Virus record (IMG/VR): IMGVR_UViG_3300048910_000190
Coordinates: 1 to 49,157 of that record
From: a virus
Reading direction: 5' to 3' (one strand)
Length of the DNA: 49,157 nt
Part shown: one piece after another, positions 16,083-24,962 of the stretch
Numbering within the stretch: the first letter of the stretch is position 1
Layout of the letters: every line of letters starts with the position of its first letter
Notes under the pieces: generated by a model
Database searches by the model: none
Told to the model about the DNA's origin: nothing
Seen by the model: the letters and a program-made list of their open reading frames with translations, nothing else
Program-made: the position numbers and the translations under genes

Positions 16083-16550
16083 TCAGGCGGAGCGGCGGGC
16101 GCCCGAGTTGACCGGCTGCACCGTGAAGCTCTTGAGGATCAGGCGGACCTGGGCCTCGGAGAAGCGCAGCAGGCCCTTCGAGTTGCCCGGCAGCGTCAGG
16201 TAGGTGCACTCGATCGAGCGCGATGCCGCTGCCTTCTGCAACCAGCTCTTGGAGATGCCCCACAGGTCGGCGACCTGCTGGGCGGTGAAGAGCCGCAGGT
16301 CGGCGTCTTCGGCGATGGCGGTGGTCATGAACCTCTCCTGGGTGATGGCCTCCGGTGGCACGCCGAGGGCTTCGGCGATGCACGTGAGGACGTGCTGGCG
16401 CGGTTTCCGGTCACCCCGTTCGATCTGGGCCAGGTAGCTGGGCGAGATGCCCGCTGCCGTGGCGATCTCCAGCAGGCTGGAGTGCCTGGCCTCACGAAGG
16501 GCCCTGATTGCCGCGCCATTCGGTGTCACGAGGAAGACGTTACGCGTCAT
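16083..16550 (-). CDS. Cro-like XRE HTH fused in frame to an excisionase-like (HTH_17/MerR-type) domain
   Basis: IRALREARHSSLLEIATAAGISPSYLAQIERG (XRE) plus LFTAQQVADLWGISKSWL...LRFSEAQV (Xis-like); internal AGGAGAGG RBS and ATG at 16328. Confidence 0.75.
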   Translation of the reverse strand: MTRNVFLVTPNGAAIRALREARHSSLLEIATAAGISPSYLAQIERGDRKPRQHVLTCIAEALGVPPEAITQERFMTTAIAEDADLRLFTAQQVADLWGISKSWLQKAAASRSIECTYLTLPGNSKGLLRFSEAQVRLILKSFTVQPVNSGARRSA

Positions 16551-16760
16551 GACGCGTCACGTCAACGCTTCTTGCGTCAAAGCGCTTCATTTTCTACAGC
16601 TTGCGACGTAATGACACTCAGTGACACCTGATGGCATGTGCCAGATGCACGGGAAGATGCACGCGCACCAGCCAGCACACGCGACGACCCGTGTGACATG
16701 GCTTAAAGGCAGGTCAAATGGCGCACCACTGACTCCCCGCGTGAACCCAGGTGATGCATC
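16542..16760. promoter_or_regulatory. immunity switch region between divergent cro and repressor
   Basis: AT-richer intergenic DNA; palindrome ACGCGTCATGACGCGT (16542-16557) over the cro start; further TGAC/GTCA half-sites. Confidence 0.6.
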
Positions 16761-17297
16761 ATGTGGAACATGGAGCAGCTAGATTGGACCCGCCTCGGCG
16801 CGGCGATCGTGTCCGCGTACGAGTCCCTGGGGCTCAGCCACACGGAATTCGCCGAACTCGCCGGCGTGTCACGCAGCACGCTGCACCGCCTGGAGCGCGG
16901 CCTCGGCGGGACACCCAGTGACAGCACCCTCGCCAAGGTGGAACGCGCCGTGGGCTGGGAGCATGGGGCCGCCCGGGCGGTGGCCGCCGGAGGTGCCGCA
17001 CCATCCGCCACCGGCCCGCGCGTGGTCGCCTTCAGCAAGCCCGAGGCGTTGAGCGAACCGAGTGTCCTCGACCAGCTCCCGGTGCAGGTGCGCGAGGAAC
17101 TCCGGCAGAGCGGCACGCTCCTCGGCGCCGATGTCGTGGATCTCGGGCCCGACGGCTCCGGCGCACGGATGATCATCGTGGCGACGCGTGATGCCTCTGG
17201 CGCCGAGCTGGACCCCGAGGTACTGCGGGCGACCCTGGTGGAGTGGCAGCGCAAGCGCCGCGAATTGTGGCGTCAGGGCGACGCCCCGCCAGTCTGA
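16761..17297 (+). CDS. XRE-family immunity repressor (CI-like)
   Basis: LGLSHTEFAELAGVSRSTLHRLERG HTH; divergent from cro and upstream of the integrase. Confidence 0.8.
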   Translation: MWNMEQLDWTRLGAAIVSAYESLGLSHTEFAELAGVSRSTLHRLERGLGGTPSDSTLAKVERAVGWEHGAARAVAAGGAAPSATGPRVVAFSKPEALSEPSVLDQLPVQVREELRQSGTLLGADVVDLGPDGSGARMIIVATRDASGAELDPEVLRATLVEWQRKRRELWRQGDAPPV

Positions 17298-17710: not shown

Positions 17711-19045
17711 ATGGCTCACGCTGAAAAGCGCGGAAAGAATTGGCGCGTACGGTACAAGCTGCCCAATGGGGAATTCGGCAGCGAAAGCGGATTCGCCACC
17801 AAGTCCGCCGCACTGAAACGCGGCAACGACCTCGAAGCTGACCTCCGGCACGGCCGATTCGTCGACCCGCGCAAAGCCCGCACCCCCTTCGGCGAGTGGG
17901 CACAGACCTGGATGTCCGCCCAGAACGTCGCCCCCAGCACCGTCGCGAAGCGCCGACGCCTGCTGTCGCGGCATCTGCTGCCCGAGTGGGAGAGCACCCC
18001 GCTCTGCGACATCAACCTGTTCACCGCCAAGGCCTGGGGCGCCAAGCAGACCTGCTCCCCCACCACCGTCGGGCACGCCCTCACCCTGCTCAGCATGATT
18101 CTCACGGGCGCCGCCGACGCCGGGCTCCTGCTCGCCAATCCGATGTTCGGCCGCACCAGGAAGACCGGACAGGCAGCGCACGCTGCAGCACGCAACGCGG
18201 CGAAGGCAGCTGTCGCCTGGGCCCAGCCCGACGAGGCGCACCGGATCGGGGAGCGTCTCAACGGTGTCGCGCGGCTGATGGTTCTCACCACCGCCTGGAC
18301 CGGCCTGCGATGGGGCGAACTCGCCGGCCTGCACCGGGACAACTGCCTCCTCCTTCGGCGCGACCGCGTCGACGGCAAGACCTTCGTCCGGCACGTCATC
18401 CGGATCGACCCGGAGGTCGGCGCGCTCCACGAGGTGGAGTTCGAGCTGACCGAGGAGGAGCGGGCCGCGTGGCGTGAGGCGGAGGATGCGCGGATCGCTA
18501 CGGCCGTCGCGGCCGGGAAGTCGCCGCGGCGACGCAAGGACCCGGAGCACCGGGTCGAGCTGTACCTCGGGCCGCCGAAGAACGGGACCTCGGCGCGCGA
18601 GGTGGACGTGCCGCCGTTCCTCGCCGACCTGCTGGCCGCTCACCTTGCGGCCTGGCCGCACCAGTACGTGTTCTCCACGCCGACGGACGGCACGTTCTGG
18701 CGCCGGGGGAACTTCGGGCGCCAGCAGCTGCGGCCGGCCGCCGACGGGCGTCCGGCGATCGAGCGCAAGCGGGGCCATGCCGGGCGTCACGCGTGGGAGC
18801 CGATCCTGCCGGGTGTGACGATGAGGTGGCTGCGGCACACGCACGACACGTGGATGAAGGAGGACCGGATCGACCGGGCGCTGCGGTACCAGCGGATGGG
18901 CTGGGCCGTGCGGGACATCGAGGGTGTGTATGAGCATGTGACTCCGCAGATGCGCCGGGAGCTGCTTGACGCCCTGGAGGCGCGTTGGCAGCGGGCGTGC
19001 GGTGCGGGGGCCGGGGTGACGGTACTGCGGCCCACTGGGAGTTGA
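17711..19045 (+). CDS. int: tyrosine integrase
   Basis: N-terminal arm domain; TGLRWGELAGL (R), PPKN (K), WLRHT (R), MGW (H/W), VYEH (Y); adjacent attP. Confidence 0.95.
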   Translation: MAHAEKRGKNWRVRYKLPNGEFGSESGFATKSAALKRGNDLEADLRHGRFVDPRKARTPFGEWAQTWMSAQNVAPSTVAKRRRLLSRHLLPEWESTPLCDINLFTAKAWGAKQTCSPTTVGHALTLLSMILTGAADAGLLLANPMFGRTRKTGQAAHAAARNAAKAAVAWAQPDEAHRIGERLNGVARLMVLTTAWTGLRWGELAGLHRDNCLLLRRDRVDGKTFVRHVIRIDPEVGALHEVEFELTEEERAAWREAEDARIATAVAAGKSPRRRKDPEHRVELYLGPPKNGTSAREVDVPPFLADLLAAHLAAWPHQYVFSTPTDGTFWRRGNFGRQQLRPAADGRPAIERKRGHAGRHAWEPILPGVTMRWLRHTHDTWMKEDRIDRALRYQRMGWAVRDIEGVYEHVTPQMRRELLDALEARWQRACGAGAGVTVLRPTGS

Positions 19046-19077: not shown

Positions 19078-19105
19078 AGCCCCGGACCGATCTTGGTCCG
19101 GGGCT
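19078..19105. terminator. stem-loop terminator between int and the attP tRNA fragment
   Basis: AGCCCCGGACC-GATCTT-GGTCCGGGGCT, 11-bp stem. Confidence 0.75.
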
Positions 19106-19122
19106 CTCTTGCTGGTCAAGCG

Positions 19123-19172
19123 TGGTGGGCGCAGACGGGATCGAACCGCCGACATCCGCTTTGTAAGAGCAG
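19123..19172 (-). mobile_element. attP core: 3' half of tRNA-Val(TAC)
   Basis: Reverse complement CTGCT-CTTACAA-AGCGG-ATGTC-GGCGG-TTCGATC-CCGTC-TGCGCCC-ACCA gives anticodon arm (TAC), T arm, acceptor 3' strand and CCA; no D arm or 5' acceptor strand. Confidence 0.9.
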
Positions 19173-19429
19173 TGTCGGATGCTCTCTGACCAGGGCTTTC
19201 TTGCCTTCGTCGCAGGTCAGAGCATGGGTGGATGCGGAAGCTGCGGAACGTATCGCAAGGTGTAGCAGGCAAGCATTCAAGATCATCACCCACTCACCAC
19301 CCATCACCCCCAGGAACTGGAGAGGCACCCGAGGGCCGGATCGGCGGGCAGCGGGACCACCCTCGGGTGCCACCGGACAGGAGTGCGGACTCCCGCCCGT
19401 TCGGAGCAACGCACCACCAGAACGGCACG

Positions 19430-19445
19430 TCGAACATGTGAGCGA
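19430..19445. promoter_or_regulatory. putative LexA (SOS) box overlapping a leaderless start
   Basis: TCGAAC-ATGT-GAGCGA versus actinobacterial TCGAAC-N4-GTTCGA (2 mismatches); on the minus strand TACATT-7nt-ATG(19437). Confidence 0.45.
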
Positions 19446-19581
19446 ATGTACAGGTAGGGGAGTGCCCTGCCGTGGATGTTGGGGCACCCACGGCAGGGAC
19501 GTCTAAGGGGAGGTACCCAGTCTCGCCCGAATTACCCGATCAGGTAAAGACACCTGCTCCACTGTCGCCCAGCGTGGACGG

Positions 19582-19821
19582 GTGTCAAGCGATGATCTTC
19601 CGGACTGGGTACGACAGCAACGATGGGAGATCGGCGCGCGCCTACGACGCCTACGCCTCGCGCAGAGCCTGTCCCAGGTAGACCTCGCCAACCGCGCCGG
19701 CCTCGACCACAAGACCGTCAGCCGACTGGAGAACGGAACCTACAACGTCGGCGTCGACTACCTCACGCGCATCGCACGGGCCCTGAATGTCGAGACCTGG
19801 CAGCTGTTCAAGGACGGGTGA
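19582..19821 (+). CDS. small XRE-family HTH protein
   Basis: IGARLRRLRLAQSLSQVDLANRAGLDHKTVSRLENG; probably leaderless (CAGCGT-6nt-GTG). Confidence 0.85.
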   Translation: MSSDDLPDWVRQQRWEIGARLRRLRLAQSLSQVDLANRAGLDHKTVSRLENGTYNVGVDYLTRIARALNVETWQLFKDG

Positions 19822-19944
19822 CGTGCAACCGAGGTGCTGGTCGATGGCCTGGTCCCGGTCGGCAATCATCCACCGGTACCGGCCGCGGCCGTAGGCCCCG
19901 CAGTGGATGCAGTAGCCCCACGTCAGGTCAGCCAGATCGCTCAC
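19651..19944 (-). CDS. small Zn-binding hypothetical protein; its 3' end overlaps the XRE gene antisense
   Basis: GTGA coupling with 19941..20225; CIHC...HLGC. Confidence 0.45.
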   Translation of the reverse strand: MSDLADLTWGYCIHCGAYGRGRYRWMIADRDQAIDQHLGCTSPVLEQLPGLDIQGPCDAREVVDADVVGSVLQSADGLVVEAGAVGEVYLGQALREA

Positions 19945-20225
19945 CTGGACGCTACAGGGGTGATCCGCACAGCGTGCGACTGCCCTGCCATGACGAACGT
20001 CAGGGTCAGCTGCCCGTCGCGCTCCAGGAAGCCCTCAACCCGGTCGACGGCACCCTCGCCGAAGAACTCGCGGAATGCCTCGTACTGGTGCGACCCCAAC
20101 GGGAGTCGACGAAGCGACTCCCAGATGGCGGGGATGGCATCCTGCAAGCGCGTGAACCTGGCGGGATCGGCGATGCCCTCGATGGTCACGGTGACGGGCC
20201 GCGACACTTTCGTGATGGTGTTCAT
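19941..20225 (-). CDS. hypothetical protein
   Basis: AGGAG RBS; downstream of the operator at 20284-20314. Confidence 0.75.
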   Translation of the reverse strand: MNTITKVSRPVTVTIEGIADPARFTRLQDAIPAIWESLRRLPLGSHQYEAFREFFGEGAVDRVEGFLERDGQLTLTFVMAGQSHAVRITPVASR

Positions 20226-20283
20226 GCTGGTCTCCTGGCTGGTCCCGTAGTGGGCAGATGACCATGCTGGCAGTGGACATGCC

Positions 20284-20314
20284 GCTGCCCGTGTACACCG
20301 TGTACACGGGCAGC
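20284..20314. promoter_or_regulatory. perfect 15-bp inverted repeat (operator and/or terminator)
   Basis: GCTGCCCGTGTACAC-C-GTGTACACGGGCAGC; each half contains the palindrome GTGTACAC. Confidence 0.75.
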
Positions 20315-20320
20315 AGGTTT

Positions 20321-21517
20321 TCAGATCGCGATGTGCAGCCGCCTGGCAGTCTCCGCGATAGGACCGACCGTCCGAGCCCGGCGAGCCGCCGTCAGGACCA
20401 TCTCCTGCACCAGCGGATGAGCCCTCGCCCCCTCCGGAGAGAGCCGGTCCGCCTCGGTGATCTCCCGCATCGCTGCCGCATCGTCACCGTCTCGCGTGAA
20501 CGCCCGAGCGCGGTCGATCCGGTGACGGGCCCGGCGCTCCCGGGGCATCCCGGCGAGGCTCACCCCGGCAACCCGCTCCAGTGCCTCGACACCCTCGCCG
20601 AGCTCCAGCGCCACATGCACGACGTGGATCGCCTGGTTCCCCTCCGAGAACTCGGTCTGATAGGCGCCCCCCGTCTGGTCGCGGTCAGCAGCTGATGCCG
20701 CCTCGGCGAGATGGGTGGCAGCGTCAGCCGATCGGCCGCGCTGGCTGGCCGTCACCGCCTTCACGAGGTGCAGGGTGCCCCACAGGCTCCACTGCCCCGT
20801 ATCGTCGTCGGCGCTGAGCAGGCCATCGAGGCGGTCGAGCCCGATGTCGAGGAGGGCCTCGGCCTCACCCCGGGCGCCAGCCGTCATGCAGACCTCGGCC
20901 TGCGTCCATTCCATCGCGGTGATCAGCAGAGGGTCGCCTGAGAGCTGGGCGGCCTGTACCGCCTGCCCGGATGCGAGAGCCGCGAGGTCGACGTACCCGA
21001 GCTTCTTGGCCATCATCGCCGCGTTGTGCCGGGACTCCGCGAGCAGATGGTGGGCTGCTGGCCGGTCGGCTTCGCCTATCGCGGCAGCGGTCGCAGCGGT
21101 GTCCGTCAGGAGCTCGGGCAGCAGGGTGGCGAGTTGCGTGTAGTGGCCGTGGCGCCGGAGCGCGTTGGAGTCGGTGACGCGGCGTCGCAGTTCGTCGAGC
21201 GGCAACGGCACCGCACCGACGGCGGGCAGCATCGCGTGCAGCAGAGTGCGACGAACCGCCGGGATAAGGAGGTGCGCGCCCTGGGTGGTCGGGTCGCCGA
21301 GCGCACGAGGACGGCCGAGGAGATCGGTGTAGTCGATCTGGAGCGCGTCGGCGATGGCCTGGATGACGGTGAAGGAGTCGAGGCGGCGCCGCCCGAGCTC
21401 GACGGAGGTCACCCATTCGCGGCTCATGCCGAGCGCGCCGGCGAGGTCCTCCCGGGACCAGCCGCGGCTGATTCGGGCCTGCTGGAGCCGCTGGCCGATG
21501 GTCTGTTGAGCTTCCAC
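20321..21517 (-). CDS. XRE-family HTH regulator with large all-helical (TPR-like) C-terminal domain
   Basis: GGAGGGG RBS, GTG 21517; IGQRLQQARISRGWSREDLAGALGMSREWVTSVELG; Ala-rich paired helices over ~300 aa. Confidence 0.85.
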   Translation of the reverse strand: MEAQQTIGQRLQQARISRGWSREDLAGALGMSREWVTSVELGRRRLDSFTVIQAIADALQIDYTDLLGRPRALGDPTTQGAHLLIPAVRRTLLHAMLPAVGAVPLPLDELRRRVTDSNALRRHGHYTQLATLLPELLTDTAATAAAIGEADRPAAHHLLAESRHNAAMMAKKLGYVDLAALASGQAVQAAQLSGDPLLITAMEWTQAEVCMTAGARGEAEALLDIGLDRLDGLLSADDDTGQWSLWGTLHLVKAVTASQRGRSADAATHLAEAASAADRDQTGGAYQTEFSEGNQAIHVVHVALELGEGVEALERVAGVSLAGMPRERRARHRIDRARAFTRDGDDAAAMREITEADRLSPEGARAHPLVQEMVLTAARRARTVGPIAETARRLHIAI

Positions 21518-21580
21518 GTCGTCCCCTCCGGGGTCTCTAGTGTGGTGCGTCAACGCTAGGTGGGGCCCGATTCGGCTCCA

Positions 21581-21596
21581 TGTACACGGTGTACAC
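21581..21596. promoter_or_regulatory. second copy of the GTGTACACCGTGTACA operator
   Basis: TGTACACGGTGTACAC is the exact reverse complement of the 16-mer at 20291-20306. Confidence 0.75.
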
Positions 21597-21683
21597 GCTA
21601 CGGGGTGGCGGGAGTAGTTCGATAGTGGCCGCGCGCCCCACTCGGGGCGCTACCGTAGTCACACGGACACGGAGGGGTTCACC

Positions 21684-21845
21684 ATGCCGCAGATCGTCAC
21701 CTGCCCCGCCTGCGGAGGCGCCAGGGGTACCGAGAAGGTCCAGCACACGGTGGAGACGGACTCGCAGGGCAATCAGACGCCAAAGACCTACACGACGTGG
21801 TCGCCGTGCTCCTTCTGCAGCGGCTCGGGAACGGTGGTGCAATGA
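21684..21845 (+). CDS. 53-aa zinc-finger microprotein (DnaJ-type CxxCxGxG-like)
   Basis: Not in the ORF track; GGAGGGG RBS; MPQIVTCPACGGARGTEKVQHTVETDSQGNQTPKTYTTWSPCSFCSGSGTVVQ. Confidence 0.75.
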   Translation: MPQIVTCPACGGARGTEKVQHTVETDSQGNQTPKTYTTWSPCSFCSGSGTVVQ

Positions 21846-22159
21846 GGCTGATCTTCGCCTGTCAAGAGTGCAGGACTCACTACTTGCCGCCCGCGGGGCT
21901 GCGATACGCCGACGGTGGCCGCGCGAGCGCCGTCTGGTGCTCGACGTGCCAGGCAACTAACGCAGCTCAAGGCGTCGAGGAGGACCCGGCGATGGCCGCC
22001 ATCGCCCTCCTGGCCGCCACCCATGCGATGACGGCCGCCCTCACGGCCCGGGTACGCGTGACCGGTGGGGCTCCATCAACCGACCGGCGCCCGTCCCGCC
22101 CCGCCCAGACGGCGCGCGGCCAGAAGCGCCCGACCGGCCAGCGCAGCAAGTTGCGTTGA
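21842..22159 (+). CDS. small Zn-ribbon protein with hydrophobic segment and basic tail
   Basis: ATGA coupling at 21842; CQEC...CSTC; MAAIALLAATHAMTAAL. Confidence 0.6.
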   Translation: MRLIFACQECRTHYLPPAGLRYADGGRASAVWCSTCQATNAAQGVEEDPAMAAIALLAATHAMTAALTARVRVTGGAPSTDRRPSRPAQTARGQKRPTGQRSKLR

Positions 22160-22174
22160 CCCCGGGCACGACGA

Positions 22175-22210
22175 AGCGCCCTCGCTCTCCCGGAGGCGAG
22201 CGGGGGCGCT
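22175..22210. terminator. stem-loop between convergent accessory and lysis genes
   Basis: AGCGCCCTCGCTC...GAGCGGGGGCGCT. Confidence 0.65.
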
Positions 22211-22211
22211 G

Positions 22212-22577
22212 TCACACATCGAGGCCTTGCAGGAAGGGGCGGACGTCCTCAGGGACCGGCACCGGCGGCGGTGGCGGCTCCAGCCCGGACGCCCGTATGA
22301 AACCCACCATGCTGCGGACCCAGCCCGCCAGGTAGCGGGTCGAGTACTCCTGGCTGGCAAGACGTGCCTTCTGCTGGACGCTGTCGAGCTCCTGCTTCTC
22401 AAGGCGCTTGCCCAGCCGCTCAAGCTCCTTCTCCATACGGGTAGTGACGACCCGGAAGTCATCGCGTCTCTCCTGCCGCAGAGACCTGCGGCCAGCGCGC
22501 GCGGTGTAGACGACGCCCCCAGCAGTGAAGACGCTGACGCCGATGGCAGACACAGCGGCCCAGGAATCAGTGCCCAT
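22212..22577 (-). CDS. lysis-cassette membrane protein (N-terminal TM plus coiled coil)
   Basis: GGAGG RBS, ATG 22577; TM AAVSAIGVSVFTAGGVVY; Pro-rich C-terminus. Confidence 0.75.
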   Translation of the reverse strand: MGTDSWAAVSAIGVSVFTAGGVVYTARAGRRSLRQERRDDFRVVTTRMEKELERLGKRLEKQELDSVQQKARLASQEYSTRYLAGWVRSMVGFIRASGLEPPPPPVPVPEDVRPFLQGLDV

Positions 22578-22992
22578 CGGCGCCTCCAGGATGCTCAGGT
22601 TCGGGCCACTCGGCCACGATGGCCGCGACCCCGCAGAAAGCCCCCCACACCACTGCGCCAGCCCAGCCGCGCGGATTCCCATACAGCCACCACGATGCGA
22701 GCGAGCCGAGCGCCCACGGGGCGGCAGCAAGGTAGATGGCCGGGTAACCCAGCCAGTCCCGACCGGCCGGCCGCCACGCGGAGACGACCGCGGTCACGCC
22801 CGTGGCAATCCACACCCACGCCCATGCGTGCAGCGGCATCAGGTCGAGCAGCAACCTGATGCCGCGGGTGTCAGCGGGAGGCTGCACGAGAAGCGAGTAG
22901 CCGTAGACGAGCGCCATGATCCCCTTGAGGGAGAGCACGGCGCCGCGGCGGCCCACCCGGCGCGCGGCCCGGTGGACCGCCGCGCGGATCAC
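22567..22992 (-). CDS. multi-pass membrane protein (holin-associated)
   Basis: About four hydrophobic segments; coupled to the holin stop. Confidence 0.75.
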   Translation of the reverse strand: MIRAAVHRAARRVGRRGAVLSLKGIMALVYGYSLLVQPPADTRGIRLLLDLMPLHAWAWVWIATGVTAVVSAWRPAGRDWLGYPAIYLAAAPWALGSLASWWLYGNPRGWAGAVVWGAFCGVAAIVAEWPEPEHPGGADGH

Positions 22993-23237
22993 AGTGTCTG
23001 AGTGGTGCTCGGCGACGAAGCGGCGGCAGGCAGCATGGCCGCCGAGGTCGGGTCGCCAACGAACCCGGCGAGGACGCCCTTGATGACCGTCAGCGCCGCC
23101 GGGATCGCGGCGATCGCCGCGGCCTTCAGCGCGCCCAGCGACGTCAGGTCGAACCCGGACGCGAGCAGCAGTCCCAGGAACGTGGTCGCGTAGGTGGCGA
23201 CGGTGCGCTCTACGACGTCAAGCAGGAAGCGATTCAT
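22989..23237 (-). CDS. holin (r1t-like)
   Basis: FLLDVVERTVATYATTFLGLL...AAIAAIPAALTVIKG, two TM segments; directly after the endolysin. Confidence 0.8.
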   Translation of the reverse strand: MNRFLLDVVERTVATYATTFLGLLLASGFDLTSLGALKAAAIAAIPAALTVIKGVLAGFVGDPTSAAMLPAAASSPSTTQTL

Positions 23238-23247
23238 GCTGATCTCC

Positions 23248-24120
23248 TCAGGTGAGGTTGTCGGTGCGGAAAGCGGTGGCCCAGGTCTGCGGCCCGACGA
23301 TGCCGTCTGCGGCAAGGCCCTTCTCAGCCTGGAACTGGCGGCAGACGCGGTCGGACTGGGAGGTCTGCTTGATCGGGTCACCGAAGCAGCCATCGACGGT
23401 GATGGACCAGCCACGGTCACGCATGCGCTGCTGCCACTGGCGGACATCGGCGCCCGTCATGTAGTTGCGCAGGTACCGTCCCGGCCAGGGTGCCCCGGAC
23501 GGGGCAGGGGTGGGCTTCGGGGGCGTCGGGGTCGGGCCGACGGCGAACAGCGGCGGCATCGGGCCCGGGTCGGTGTGGTCGTTCTCCGGGATCTGGCTGT
23601 GCCCGTAGTGGCCGGGCTGCGAGTCCCAGACGGCGGCGTTGCGGTGCGAGTTCCAGTCCGGGGCGCCCATGGGCCACACGTCGGGGACGCCCCAGGAGCG
23701 GAGCCACGCCATGATCCGGTCGAGGCCGACGAGCGGAGTGTCGGCGACGGTCGCGTACGTCTTGCCGCCCACCTGGCAGTACGGGAAGAACAAGATTTCG
23801 ATCTGGATGCAGACGTTGCCCTTGCGGTTGGTCTCGACGCCGCCGGGCGCATTGATGACGCTCTTGGAGCGGGAGGTGGCGGAGAAGAACTGAGCGATGC
23901 GGCCAGTGAACGGGTCCCAGGTGAGGTGCGGTGCCACCCCGGTGCCGCCGCTCGCGAAGTAGGCCACCTCGTTGTCGAAGGAGACCAGGGGCGCGGGTGC
24001 GGCGGCGGTGGCGTTCTTGTCCCAGGTGATGTGCCAGATGACGCGCGAACCGCCGTCGCCGGTCATGGGGGCGTCGTCGAGGAGGCGGAGCTCGGCTCCG
24101 GGGATGTGCTGGTCGGCCAT
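23248..24120 (-). CDS. endolysin: N-acetylmuramoyl-L-alanine amidase with peptidoglycan-binding domain
   Basis: VIWHIT...PH...IQIE...GHSQIPENDHTDPG amidase; Pro linker; DVRQWQQRM...FQAEKGLAADGIVGPQTW PG-binding domain. Confidence 0.9.
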   Translation of the reverse strand: MADQHIPGAELRLLDDAPMTGDGGSRVIWHITWDKNATAAAPAPLVSFDNEVAYFASGGTGVAPHLTWDPFTGRIAQFFSATSRSKSVINAPGGVETNRKGNVCIQIEILFFPYCQVGGKTYATVADTPLVGLDRIMAWLRSWGVPDVWPMGAPDWNSHRNAAVWDSQPGHYGHSQIPENDHTDPGPMPPLFAVGPTPTPPKPTPAPSGAPWPGRYLRNYMTGADVRQWQQRMRDRGWSITVDGCFGDPIKQTSQSDRVCRQFQAEKGLAADGIVGPQTWATAFRTDNLT

Positions 24121-24152
24121 GGGGCGCTCCTTGGGGCGTGCGTGAGATGAGG

Positions 24153-24962
24153 TCAGAGGTTCTTCGCGGTGCGCCACGTGGTGAACGCCGCCACTAGCGC
24201 CTGGTCGACACCGACCGGAGTCGGCGGGGTGGGAACCGGGGCCGGGGCGGTGAGCGGCACGAAGGCGGTCGCATCACCCTGCTCGCCAAGGAGTCGGCCG
24301 AGGTCGTCGAAGGAGAAGGAGAAGCAGCCGCGAGCTCCGTACGACTCGCCCCAGGAGTTGCGGGCGAGCACCCGCTGCCCCGGTCCGTCGATGCCGTACA
24401 GCAGGAACTCGTGGCCGCCACGCACCGAGCCGGAGATGGAGACGAACCCGGCGGCGTCCGGGCTGTCGAACCCGGAGTACCAGTTGACGCCCACGATCAG
24501 CGGCATCACCGACAGGGCCTTCAGCGCGGCGTCCAGCGAGAATGCGTGCTGATAGCCGCTGATCAACCCGGCCTTCTGCGCAGCCTTCGCGACCGCGACG
24601 CCGGTTGAGCCCGTGTCAGTCGGCGGGTAGACGCCCTGGATAGAGTCCAGCCGCGTCGCCGCCGAGTACAGGGCCACCGCCTGCTGGTGGTCCGCCCCGG
24701 CGTCGCCCGTCGGACGGGCCGCGATCGACAGCGGTATCGCCCCGTACAGTGGGTCCGTCCCGGCCAGGGCCTCCGCCGCATGCCCGGTGCAGCTACCCGT
24801 CTGCCCCTGGTCGAGCACGGGGATGTTGATGGTGTGCACGGCCGAGCTGTACGTGCCGGGCAGCAGGTCCTCGGAGAGAGCGTAGGCGCGCGACCGGGGG
24901 TCGTGCTCGACGTGGCGGCCGAGACGTCCGATGCCGGGATGTTCGTCGATGAAGCGGATCAC
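24153..24962 (-). CDS. papain-like (C1) cysteine peptidase
   Basis: DQGQTGSC (Q, C), GGHE (H), RNSWG (N). Confidence 0.85.
   Translation of the reverse strand: MIRFIDEHPGIGRLGRHVEHDPRSRAYALSEDLLPGTYSSAVHTINIPVLDQGQTGSCTGHAAEALAGTDPLYGAIPLSIAARPTGDAGADHQQAVALYSAATRLDSIQGVYPPTDTGSTGVAVAKAAQKAGLISGYQHAFSLDAALKALSVMPLIVGVNWYSGFDSPDAAGFVSISGSVRGGHEFLLYGIDGPGQRVLARNSWGESYGARGCFSFSFDDLGRLLGEQGDATAFVPLTAPAPVPTPPTPVGVDQALVAAFTTWRTAKNL

Follow-up and report, generated by a model that had tools for sequence, protein, structure and literature searches.

A helix-turn-helix regulator gene bracketed by twin palindromic sites, one of them at the apex of a terminator-like hairpin, in a temperate actinomycete-associated phage

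INTRODUCTION

Regulators in which an XRE-type helix-turn-helix (HTH) domain is joined to a superhelix of tetratricopeptide repeats (TPRs) include the RRNPP receptors (PlcR-PapR, NprR-NprX, AimR-AimP, and PrgX), which have the partner gene directly downstream and palindromic boxes near −35/−40; a PrgX tetramer occupies two operator sites, looping the DNA. In phages lambda and 186, the cI gene lies between the operators OR and OL, which take part in long-range looping, and CI bound at −42 activates the promoter PRM. In Streptomyces, pairs of the WhiJ-BldB type consist of an XRE regulator with an HTH_31 domain and an adjacent small DUF397 protein. The RRNPP systems have been treated as Firmicutes systems (PMC10075063); the host phylum in the present case is Actinomycetota. 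Here we analyze a locus in a 49,157-nt window (the whole stretch of DNA under study, one strand, 5' to 3') that is part of the 59-kb IMG/VR virus record IMGVR_UViG_3300048910_000190. At this locus, the gene for a 398-amino-acid regulator stands between two copies of one palindromic sequence, O1 and O2. From comparisons with homologous loci, we regard it as moderately probable that O1, the regulator gene, and O2 form an autoregulated, portable regulator-plus-cargo cassette that controls the gene behind O2.

The locus shares with the RRNPP receptors the XRE HTH and TPR superhelix, a small gene directly downstream, and a palindromic box near −35/−40. It differs from them in sequence (identity to the regulator is 9 to 14%), in having no exported propeptide gene, and in the presence of a putative operator in a terminator. 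With the CI systems it shares a gene bracketed by putative cognate operators 1.29 kb apart, an upstream site near −42, and outward-facing units. However, lambda has triple operators, a peptidase-S24 domain, and early promoters, whereas the present locus has a single dyad on each side and a TPR domain, and its regulator arrangement also occurs outside phages. The resemblance to WhiJ-BldB lies in an actinomycete XRE regulator with many paralogs, followed by a gene for a small protein; the C-terminal domain differs, and neither DUF397 nor any other Pfam family was detected in the small proteins encoded here. Conserved placement of an operator in the regulator's own terminator is, as far as we found, undescribed.

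RESULTS AND DISCUSSION

Twin sites around the regulator gene

The features that make up the putative cassette in the window are as follows.

20321-21517, minus strand: regulator (P0001), an XRE-HTH plus TPR protein of 398 amino acids, with a GTG start behind a GGAGG ribosome-binding site (RBS)
21580-21596: O1, the upstream candidate operator ATGTACAC-G-GTGTACAC, between the regulator gene and the divergent zn53 operon
20284-20314, minus strand: O2, a perfect 31-bp palindrome with the core GTGTACAC-N-GTGTACAC at 20291-20307, at a hairpin apex
21553-21558, minus strand: −10-like hexamer TAGCGT of the presumed regulator promoter, assigned by eye
19941-20225, minus strand: p94, 94 amino acids, the first cargo gene behind O2, with an AGGAGA RBS and a third-position GC content (GC3) of 0.86

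The 16-mer GTGTACACCGTGTACA at 20291-20306 recurs as its reverse complement at 21581-21596. The dyad GTGTACAC-N-GTGTACAC occurs only twice in the 49 kb, at 20291-20307 and 21580-21596, and these two occurrences bracket the regulator gene. When up to three mismatches were allowed, the 17-mer GTGTACACNGTGTACAC had exactly 2 matches in the window, against 0.06 expected, and none of 100 shuffled sequences reached 2. O2, measured from its center, lies 74 nt upstream of the p94 gene and O1 lies 96 nt upstream of the zn53 gene; the distance between the two sites is 1.29 kb in the window and 1289 to 1310 bp across loci. An earlier note, made from the letters of the window, had reported the 16-mer on both sides, the 31-bp palindrome, the open reading frames, and the coupled operons flanking the regulator gene, and all of these statements proved correct on direct reading. 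The observation itself is thus confirmed, and the interpretation that the note placed on it is partly supported.

The locus was compared with 17 genomic and 4 viral loci encoding homologs of the regulator, plus about 35 more distant loci; twin sites were counted in the 16 nonredundant loci at 44% identity or more, the window included. In 11 of these 16 loci, the pattern GTAC-N5-GTAC follows the stop codon within 70 nt (0.05 expected, from 8 background matches in 190 kb), and in 9 it occurs no more than 260 nt upstream (0.16 expected). Nine loci carry it on both sides by the strict pattern, and L002 and L007 add co-varying variants. The upstream copy lies at −71 to −81 relative to the start codon in 7/16 loci, with two more at −175 and −192. 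A search for homologs with co-varying flanking palindromes had been set beforehand as a check in the earlier note, and the counts downstream and on both sides bear that expectation out. The window belongs to the twin-operator subfamily, defined by an upstream dyad and a hairpin-apex dyad within 70 nt after the stop codon.

The two copies co-vary within a locus. In L002 the spacer is 1 nt shorter in both sites, which have a 15-mer in common; the two 17-mers of L011 differ by a single base; and in L007 both O2 half-sites read GAC/GTC instead of GTAC, as does the O1 half-site nearer the promoter. These loci lie in metagenome phages and in the chromosomes of Actinomadura, Sphaerisporangium, Embleya, Yinghuangia, and Saccharothrix, and the regulator gene is the sole gene common to these phage and chromosomal contexts. 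Sites of the GTAC type pair with a recognition helix of the form W-x-(K/R/T)-S-(V/I)-E; where the helix of a more distant relative is W-x-S-(K/Q)-(I/V)-E, that upstream position is taken by a different dyad (for example, CTGGCAG-N5-CTGCCAG, CCGGACA-N3-TGTCCGG, or CCCGTAA-N5-TTACGGG). By far the most likely reading of this pattern is that the regulator would bind the dyad. Among distant paralogs (28 to 34% identity), sharing of exact k-mers between upstream and downstream regions was no better than in noncognate controls, and our claim of a twin layout is therefore confined to the subfamily with at least 44% identity. Another reading, in which the sites would delimit a mobile element or serve in recombination in the manner of attC, was rejected, as no recombinase accompanies them and one site lies at a fixed spacing from a promoter.

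Two homologous loci showed additional repeats of their own. In L005 (Actinomadura roseirufa), a 22-mer, CCGNGTACGYCTGGTACGGGCC, which contains GTAC-N5-GTAC, occurs at positions 1198, 3647, 9084, and 10703, the four copies being scattered around two tandem regulator paralogs, each followed by a gene for a small "FPGWSIIxT...WWAIR" protein; these 22-mers may represent a larger regulon or another repeat family. In L030, the gene for an Embleya paralog with 28% identity that shares the WLKSIE recognition helix is immediately preceded by a tRNA gene and a terminator, and its stop codon is followed by the half-site GGGTACAC and a GGGGAC-N5-GTCCCC hairpin. L030 may lie at the edge of an island.

The downstream site as an RNA hairpin

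As the O2 palindrome lies 3' of the regulator gene and on the same strand, it is also a terminator-like hairpin, a property that the earlier note had missed. The RNA fold of O2 in the window has an energy of −31.6 kcal/mol (z −4.7), and the downstream sites in the homologous loci all form the apex of a palindrome of 29 to 33 bp. When 11 loci were aligned without gaps, the stem proved conserved over its inner 8 to 9 pairs, and its outer 8 pairs varied in a compensatory manner: 94% of the cells pair, against 28 to 42% in slid controls, 13 of the 17 pairs change on both sides, and 0 of 500 shuffles match these values. The non-Watson-Crick cells comprise 10 G·U on the sense strand of the regulator versus 1 A·C. 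Taken with the compensation, the sense-strand G·U cells suggest that selection has acted on a hairpin formed by the regulator RNA. On this alignment, O2 is at once a terminator-like RNA element and a putative copy of the operator. A match of miRNA type that Rfam gave on the O2 palindrome is due to chance.

In 11 of 13 loci there is no TAnnnT hexamer within 110 nt between O2 and the next gene, which suggests that the cargo is reached by read-through and not from a promoter of its own.

The regulator protein

Residues 19-78 of the regulator matched the Pfam families HTH_31 (47.8 bits, cutoff of 27; E 1.8e-12) and HTH_3 (31.2 bits, cutoff of 23), which places the domain in the XRE/Cro-CI type. 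The regulator is also a full-length match to phrog_5823, "transcriptional regulator" (E 1.5e-71, 242.7 bits, residues 3-384 on profile positions 3-389 of 404). The C-terminal part (residues 145-391 on profile positions 186-430) scored 19.8 bits (E 4.6e-4) with the NsdA TPR-like model NF053720, below its curated cutoff of 75 bits, and the C-terminal domain would thus be at most distantly related to the NsdA family. The AlphaFold2 (AF2) model, built with 20 homologs, is all-helical with a predicted local distance difference test (pLDDT) score of 89, and residues from about 100 to 398 form a TPR superhelix with VIA Z scores of 13 to 19 against many TPR proteins, including domain III of MalT. The earlier description of an HTH plus all-helical, TPR-like protein therefore holds at the level of family match and predicted fold.

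In the same comparison, Rap of phi105 scored 16.4, NprR 15.2, and AimR 13.4, and unrelated TPR proteins scored equally. The HTH domain superimposed on the DNA-binding domain of ImmR with a Z score of 12.5 and a root mean square deviation of 1.1 over 65 residues. The best whole-chain Foldseek matches were PlcR (3u3w) and ComR (5fd4), with E values of 7-9e-4 and 12 to 14% identity, and further high matches were Rgg2, phage Rap, and AimR at about 1e-3. No Pfam match to a Peptidase_S24 domain was obtained in the regulator, whose C terminus is the TPR superhelix instead. When the TPR domain was modeled in complex with p94, the prediction scored 0.10 (the mark being 0.32), which lends no support to a contact and counts neither for nor against one.

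The regulator belongs to a family that is known but uncharacterized. It comprises 1204 representatives of 50% clusters at an E value of 1e-10 or less, nearly all of about 400 amino acids, and the sources label it merely as "helix-turn-helix domain-containing protein." Matches at 1e-40 or less were present in 41 of 301 sampled Actinomycetes genomes, often in several copies; this tally takes in the unpublished genomes G017 and G026, whose loci were left unused and on which no claim is based. Single genomes of Actinomadura and Embleya hold 7 to 8 copies. In the portions of the literature open to full-text search, we found no characterized member of the family and no published operator, structure, or function. 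The closest metagenomic homologs include P0007 and P0190 (both on one 5.2-kb contig), P0008, and P0012. With the regulator as the tblastn query, matches in isolated phages were confined to the HTH domain and those in plasmids were weak.

Variable cargo and flanking genes

The genes and elements next to the cassette are the following.

19651-19944, minus strand: p97, a CIHC...HLGC open reading frame of 97 amino acids, with a GTGA start/stop overlap with p94
19582-19821, plus strand: gene for a 79-amino-acid XRE HTH protein (HTH_3, E 2.1e-13), convergent with p97 and right after attP
21684-21845, plus strand: zn53, 53 amino acids, two DnaJ-type CxxCxGxG motifs, GGAGG RBS, GC3 of 0.89
21842-22159, plus strand: zn105, 105 amino acids, zinc ribbon CQEC...CSTC, ATGA overlap with zn53
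21621-21626 and 21651-21656, plus-strand side of O1: GATAGT and TACCGT, candidate −10 boxes for zn53
21633-21650: GC hairpin GCGCCCC-ACTC-GGGGCGC (fold z −1.3), located between O1 and the start of zn53 and followed at once by TACCGT

The earlier note had presented the regulator, the twin sites, and the small-protein operons on both sides as one self-contained module. The regulator and its putative cognate twin sites are conserved together, and to that extent the proposal stands; the flanking small genes are not conserved, and their place as parts of the module could not be upheld. No tblastn match of p94, p97, zn53, or zn105 was found in 20 homologous loci (18 nonredundant), and the 79-amino-acid HTH gene gave one weak HTH match in the same set. 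The note had also named, as a finding that would count against it, homologs without linked operators and microproteins; the operators are kept in most of the homologs at 44% identity or more, and the microproteins are absent.

The boundaries of related contigs give the same picture. A 7-kb soil contig (X6 rec23) is about 95% identical over 19817-21605 only and diverges at both ends, so that the shared unit ends 9 nt beyond O1. In more distant, L019-like relatives, contigs join 21430 to 22163, at the lysis-cassette terminator, and skip the Zn-finger operon. These boundaries delimit a mosaic unit that runs from O1 through the regulator gene, O2, and p94 into p97, of which it includes the first ~42 codons. 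By this comparison, the Zn-finger operon and the 79-amino-acid HTH gene are neighbors and not parts of the unit, and the microprotein operons appear as interchangeable cargo or later additions.

What follows O2 differs from locus to locus. In 9 of 13 loci the position is taken by unrelated proteins of 63 to 94 amino acids, two of them Cys-rich. In the phage locus L019 (IMGVR_UViG_3300048903_000268), whose sequence recurs in L020, a 305-amino-acid terpene synthase (PF19086, E 6e-19, with a DDxxD-like motif) is encoded directly behind O2 at L019:7319-8233, between the regulator gene and the integrase gene, and in Sphaerisporangium the cargo is a Methyltransf_19 enzyme. Behind the genes of distant family members (28 to 43% identity), in many cases with the stop codon overlapping the next start codon, stand genes that sequence motifs, assigned by eye, mark as NUDIX (L036, L039, L040, and L041), flavoprotein (L027, L042, L049, L052, and L054), or HAD (L015 and L016). 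These members have family-specific dyads at −50 to −80, which, together with the adjacent enzyme genes, suggests that the wider family regulates neighboring metabolic genes.

In the window, p94 is predicted to be a small beta2-alpha3-beta2 protein (AF2 pLDDT 84). It has six homologs at 55 to 93% identity, and its model found no informative match among PDB or viral folds, the Atlas suggesting just a PAS-like small alpha/beta fold. A metagenome scan with the p94 alignment gave two matches at 39% identity, with no regulator nearby. The p97 frame overlaps, over its last 171 nt, the 79-amino-acid HTH gene, which had been overlooked in the earlier note. In the GC frame plot the plus-strand gene is supported at 19640-19760 (third-position GC of 0.85 to 0.90) and p97 only at 19820-19944, so that p97 resembles a dedicated coding region in its first ~42 codons alone, the rest being antisense to the HTH gene.

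On the other side, zn53 gave a weak DnaJ_CXXCXGXG match (E 0.003) and has three close homologs, two of which (83% identity) keep CPACGG...CSFCSGSG, the third being shortened to the first motif only; by this distribution zn53 is a lineage-specific add-on. Its partner zn105 has an N-terminal zinc ribbon, hydrophobic residues at about 50-67 (Kyte-Doolittle value of 1.74), and an Arg/Lys-rich tail, features that may make it a Zn-ribbon protein anchored in the membrane. The Atlas cluster closest to zn105 contains 103 actinobacterial hypothetical proteins. No relatives of p94, zn105, or zn53 were found in viral contigs.

A proposed autoregulated cassette

The arrangement suggests the following scheme. 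The regulator would be a dimeric XRE-HTH factor with a TPR-type sensor or oligomerization domain, and it would recognize the dyad G(T/G)GTACAC-N-GTGTAC(A/C)C. Of the 8 loci measured, 6 have a TAnnnT hexamer 22 to 24 nt from the end of the O1 dyad, namely, TAGCGT, TACCGT, or TAACGT in the window, L019, L002, L022, L004, and L005; this hexamer precedes the regulator gene's RBS by ~30 nt. If TAnnnT is the −10 box, the O1 dyad is centered near −41 to −43 of the regulator's own promoter, and autoregulation would follow from binding there. A site near −42 fits either activation of the class II type or occlusion of a −35 element, and hence either sign of autoregulation. O2 would form the apex of the hairpin that ends the regulator's own transcript, just ahead of the co-directional cargo gene. 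Expression of the cargo would probably occur by read-through of this hairpin, and regulator bound at O2 could act as a second lock, either as a roadblock or by joining O1 to O2 in a ~1.3-kb loop, and some input would act on the TPR domain. Temperate actinophages, between their lysis genes and attP/int, and actinomycete chromosomes would use such a cassette for whatever follows O2. In the window this cargo would be p94 and a short Cys/His protein, and the divergent Zn-finger operon would have been placed beside O1 in the window lineage.

Several observations weigh against this scheme. A scan of 19300-22400 for consensus sigma-70 promoters and for terminators with a U-tract found nothing, so that all promoter assignments were made by eye. 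No U-tract follows the O2 hairpin in the window, and termination there is thus assumed. Three Kitasatospora homologs with 49 to 56% identity (L006, L009, and L013) are without GTAC sites, and L010 is without the upstream one. On the side of the divergent operon, the −10-like TACCGT lies 56 nt from O1 and behind another hairpin. Neither of the candidate −10 boxes of zn53 is conserved in other loci, and for this reason control of the Zn-finger operon by O1, while plausible, is weakly supported.

If the scheme holds, it provides a testable binding motif and cis-architecture for a large family (about 1200 cluster representatives, one PHROG, and many paralogs per genome). An operator at the apex of a terminator, with a second copy upstream, would be an unusual way of coupling autoregulation to the control of a downstream gene. 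The layout could explain silent or inducible accessory genes (morons) in temperate actinophages, and the slot behind O2 is a place to seek phage accessory functions, the phage-borne terpene synthase among them. A more far-reaching view, which we consider rather unlikely, is that the locus is an actinobacterial counterpart of the Firmicute HTH-TPR receptors, namely, a ligand-gated, mobile double-lock cassette with an operator in its own terminator, whose two sites cooperate by looping or roadblock to switch accessory genes on a cue. The cue would come from the host or the phage or would be a small molecule, and the genes switched would be those for small Cys-rich proteins here and for the terpene synthase in the related phage. 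Sensing of a signal by the TPR domain would extend HTH-TPR signaling beyond the Firmicutes.

Alternative explanations

The geometry of the locus recalls lambda, with a gene between two putative operators, outward operons, and a site at about −42 of what would be its own promoter, and in related phages the regulator gene always lies between the lysis cassette and the integrase gene. It might therefore be a second, lambda CI-like immunity repressor, with O1 and O2 as OR and OL and outward promoters driving lytic or anti-repressor functions. We consider this highly unlikely. The 49-kb window has only the two sites, both away from the blocks of early and late genes; beside int, at 16083-17297, stands a divergent HTH pair of canonical form that is likely to be the main lysis-lysogeny switch; the protein has no S24 peptidase domain; the controlled genes are unrelated between phages; and up to 7 to 8 paralogs occur per actinomycete chromosome, where they adjoin enzyme genes. 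The regulator is thus probably not the main immunity repressor of this phage. The proposal that the left palindrome is only a terminator, with a 16-mer shared by common descent or chance and without a role in protein binding, draws on the strength of the RNA hairpin, the covariation of its outer stem, and its position directly 3' of the gene. Against it, conservation at the apex contrasts with free variation in the outer stem, the dyad recurs upstream without the stem arms and at a fixed spacing from a −10-like box, and the copies co-vary within loci down to a shared spacer deletion; we regard it as extremely improbable.

A receptor or partner switch of the RRNPP kind, in which p94 would be the ligand of the TPR domain, either as a signal precursor or as an intracellular anti-repressor with feedback on the regulator, would account for the HTH-TPR architecture and for the Foldseek matches to PlcR, ComR, Rgg2, Rap, and AimR. 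RRNPP systems have the peptide gene directly downstream of the receptor gene, and at the homologous loci an open reading frame of 63 to 94 amino acids occupies that place in 9/13 cases. However, the structural similarity is of the generic TPR kind, as MalT domain III, APPBP2, and KLC score equally, and the downstream protein families are unrelated even where the TPR domains are 44 to 71% identical, giving way elsewhere to a terpene synthase or a methyltransferase. The downstream proteins have no N terminus resembling a signal peptide (the highest 12-residue Kyte-Doolittle mean was 1.1), and a search for an exported propeptide found no hydrophobic N-terminal segment in p94, p97, zn53, zn105, or 8 downstream small proteins of homologous loci. 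With no signal-peptide-like small protein beside the regulators and with unrelated downstream genes, the locus is not an arbitrium system or an RRNPP system of the strict kind, in line with the earlier note, which had set classical arbitrium aside because no secreted propeptide gene was visible. A receptor or partner switch of this kind is accordingly quite improbable in our judgment, and the autoregulated cassette remains the reading that we prefer.

Genomic setting

The other features of the window that bear on the position of the locus are listed here.

17711-19045: tyrosine integrase
22989-24177: holin and endolysin
16083-16550, minus strand, and 16761-17297, plus strand: divergent HTH gene pair beside int (155 and 178 amino acids)
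19126-19186, minus strand: tRNA-like remnant (Rfam, subthreshold, 24 bits against a gathering score of 29)
22176-22209: GC-rich terminator-like hairpin between zn105 and the convergent lysis cassette (−33.7 kcal/mol, z −2.35)

The record comes from root and soil metagenomes and has a G+C content of 69%, and the phage is temperate and actinomycete associated; blastn with the region gave no match in isolated phages. Nearly all genes of the window are on the minus strand, with early genes at 1 to 16.5 kb and late genes at 22.2 to 48 kb. The regulator locus occupies an accessory slot between attP on one side and the end of the lysis cassette on the other, and in L019 the lysis genes end with a sequence similar to the hairpin at 22176-22209. 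The 155-amino-acid HTH gene also has a weak match to an excisionase/regulator PHROG. The region of the tRNA-like remnant (19082-19222) shows a depth spike of >100× in three root-metagenome runs. The remnant probably marks attP, whose core would derive from a tRNA gene of the host.

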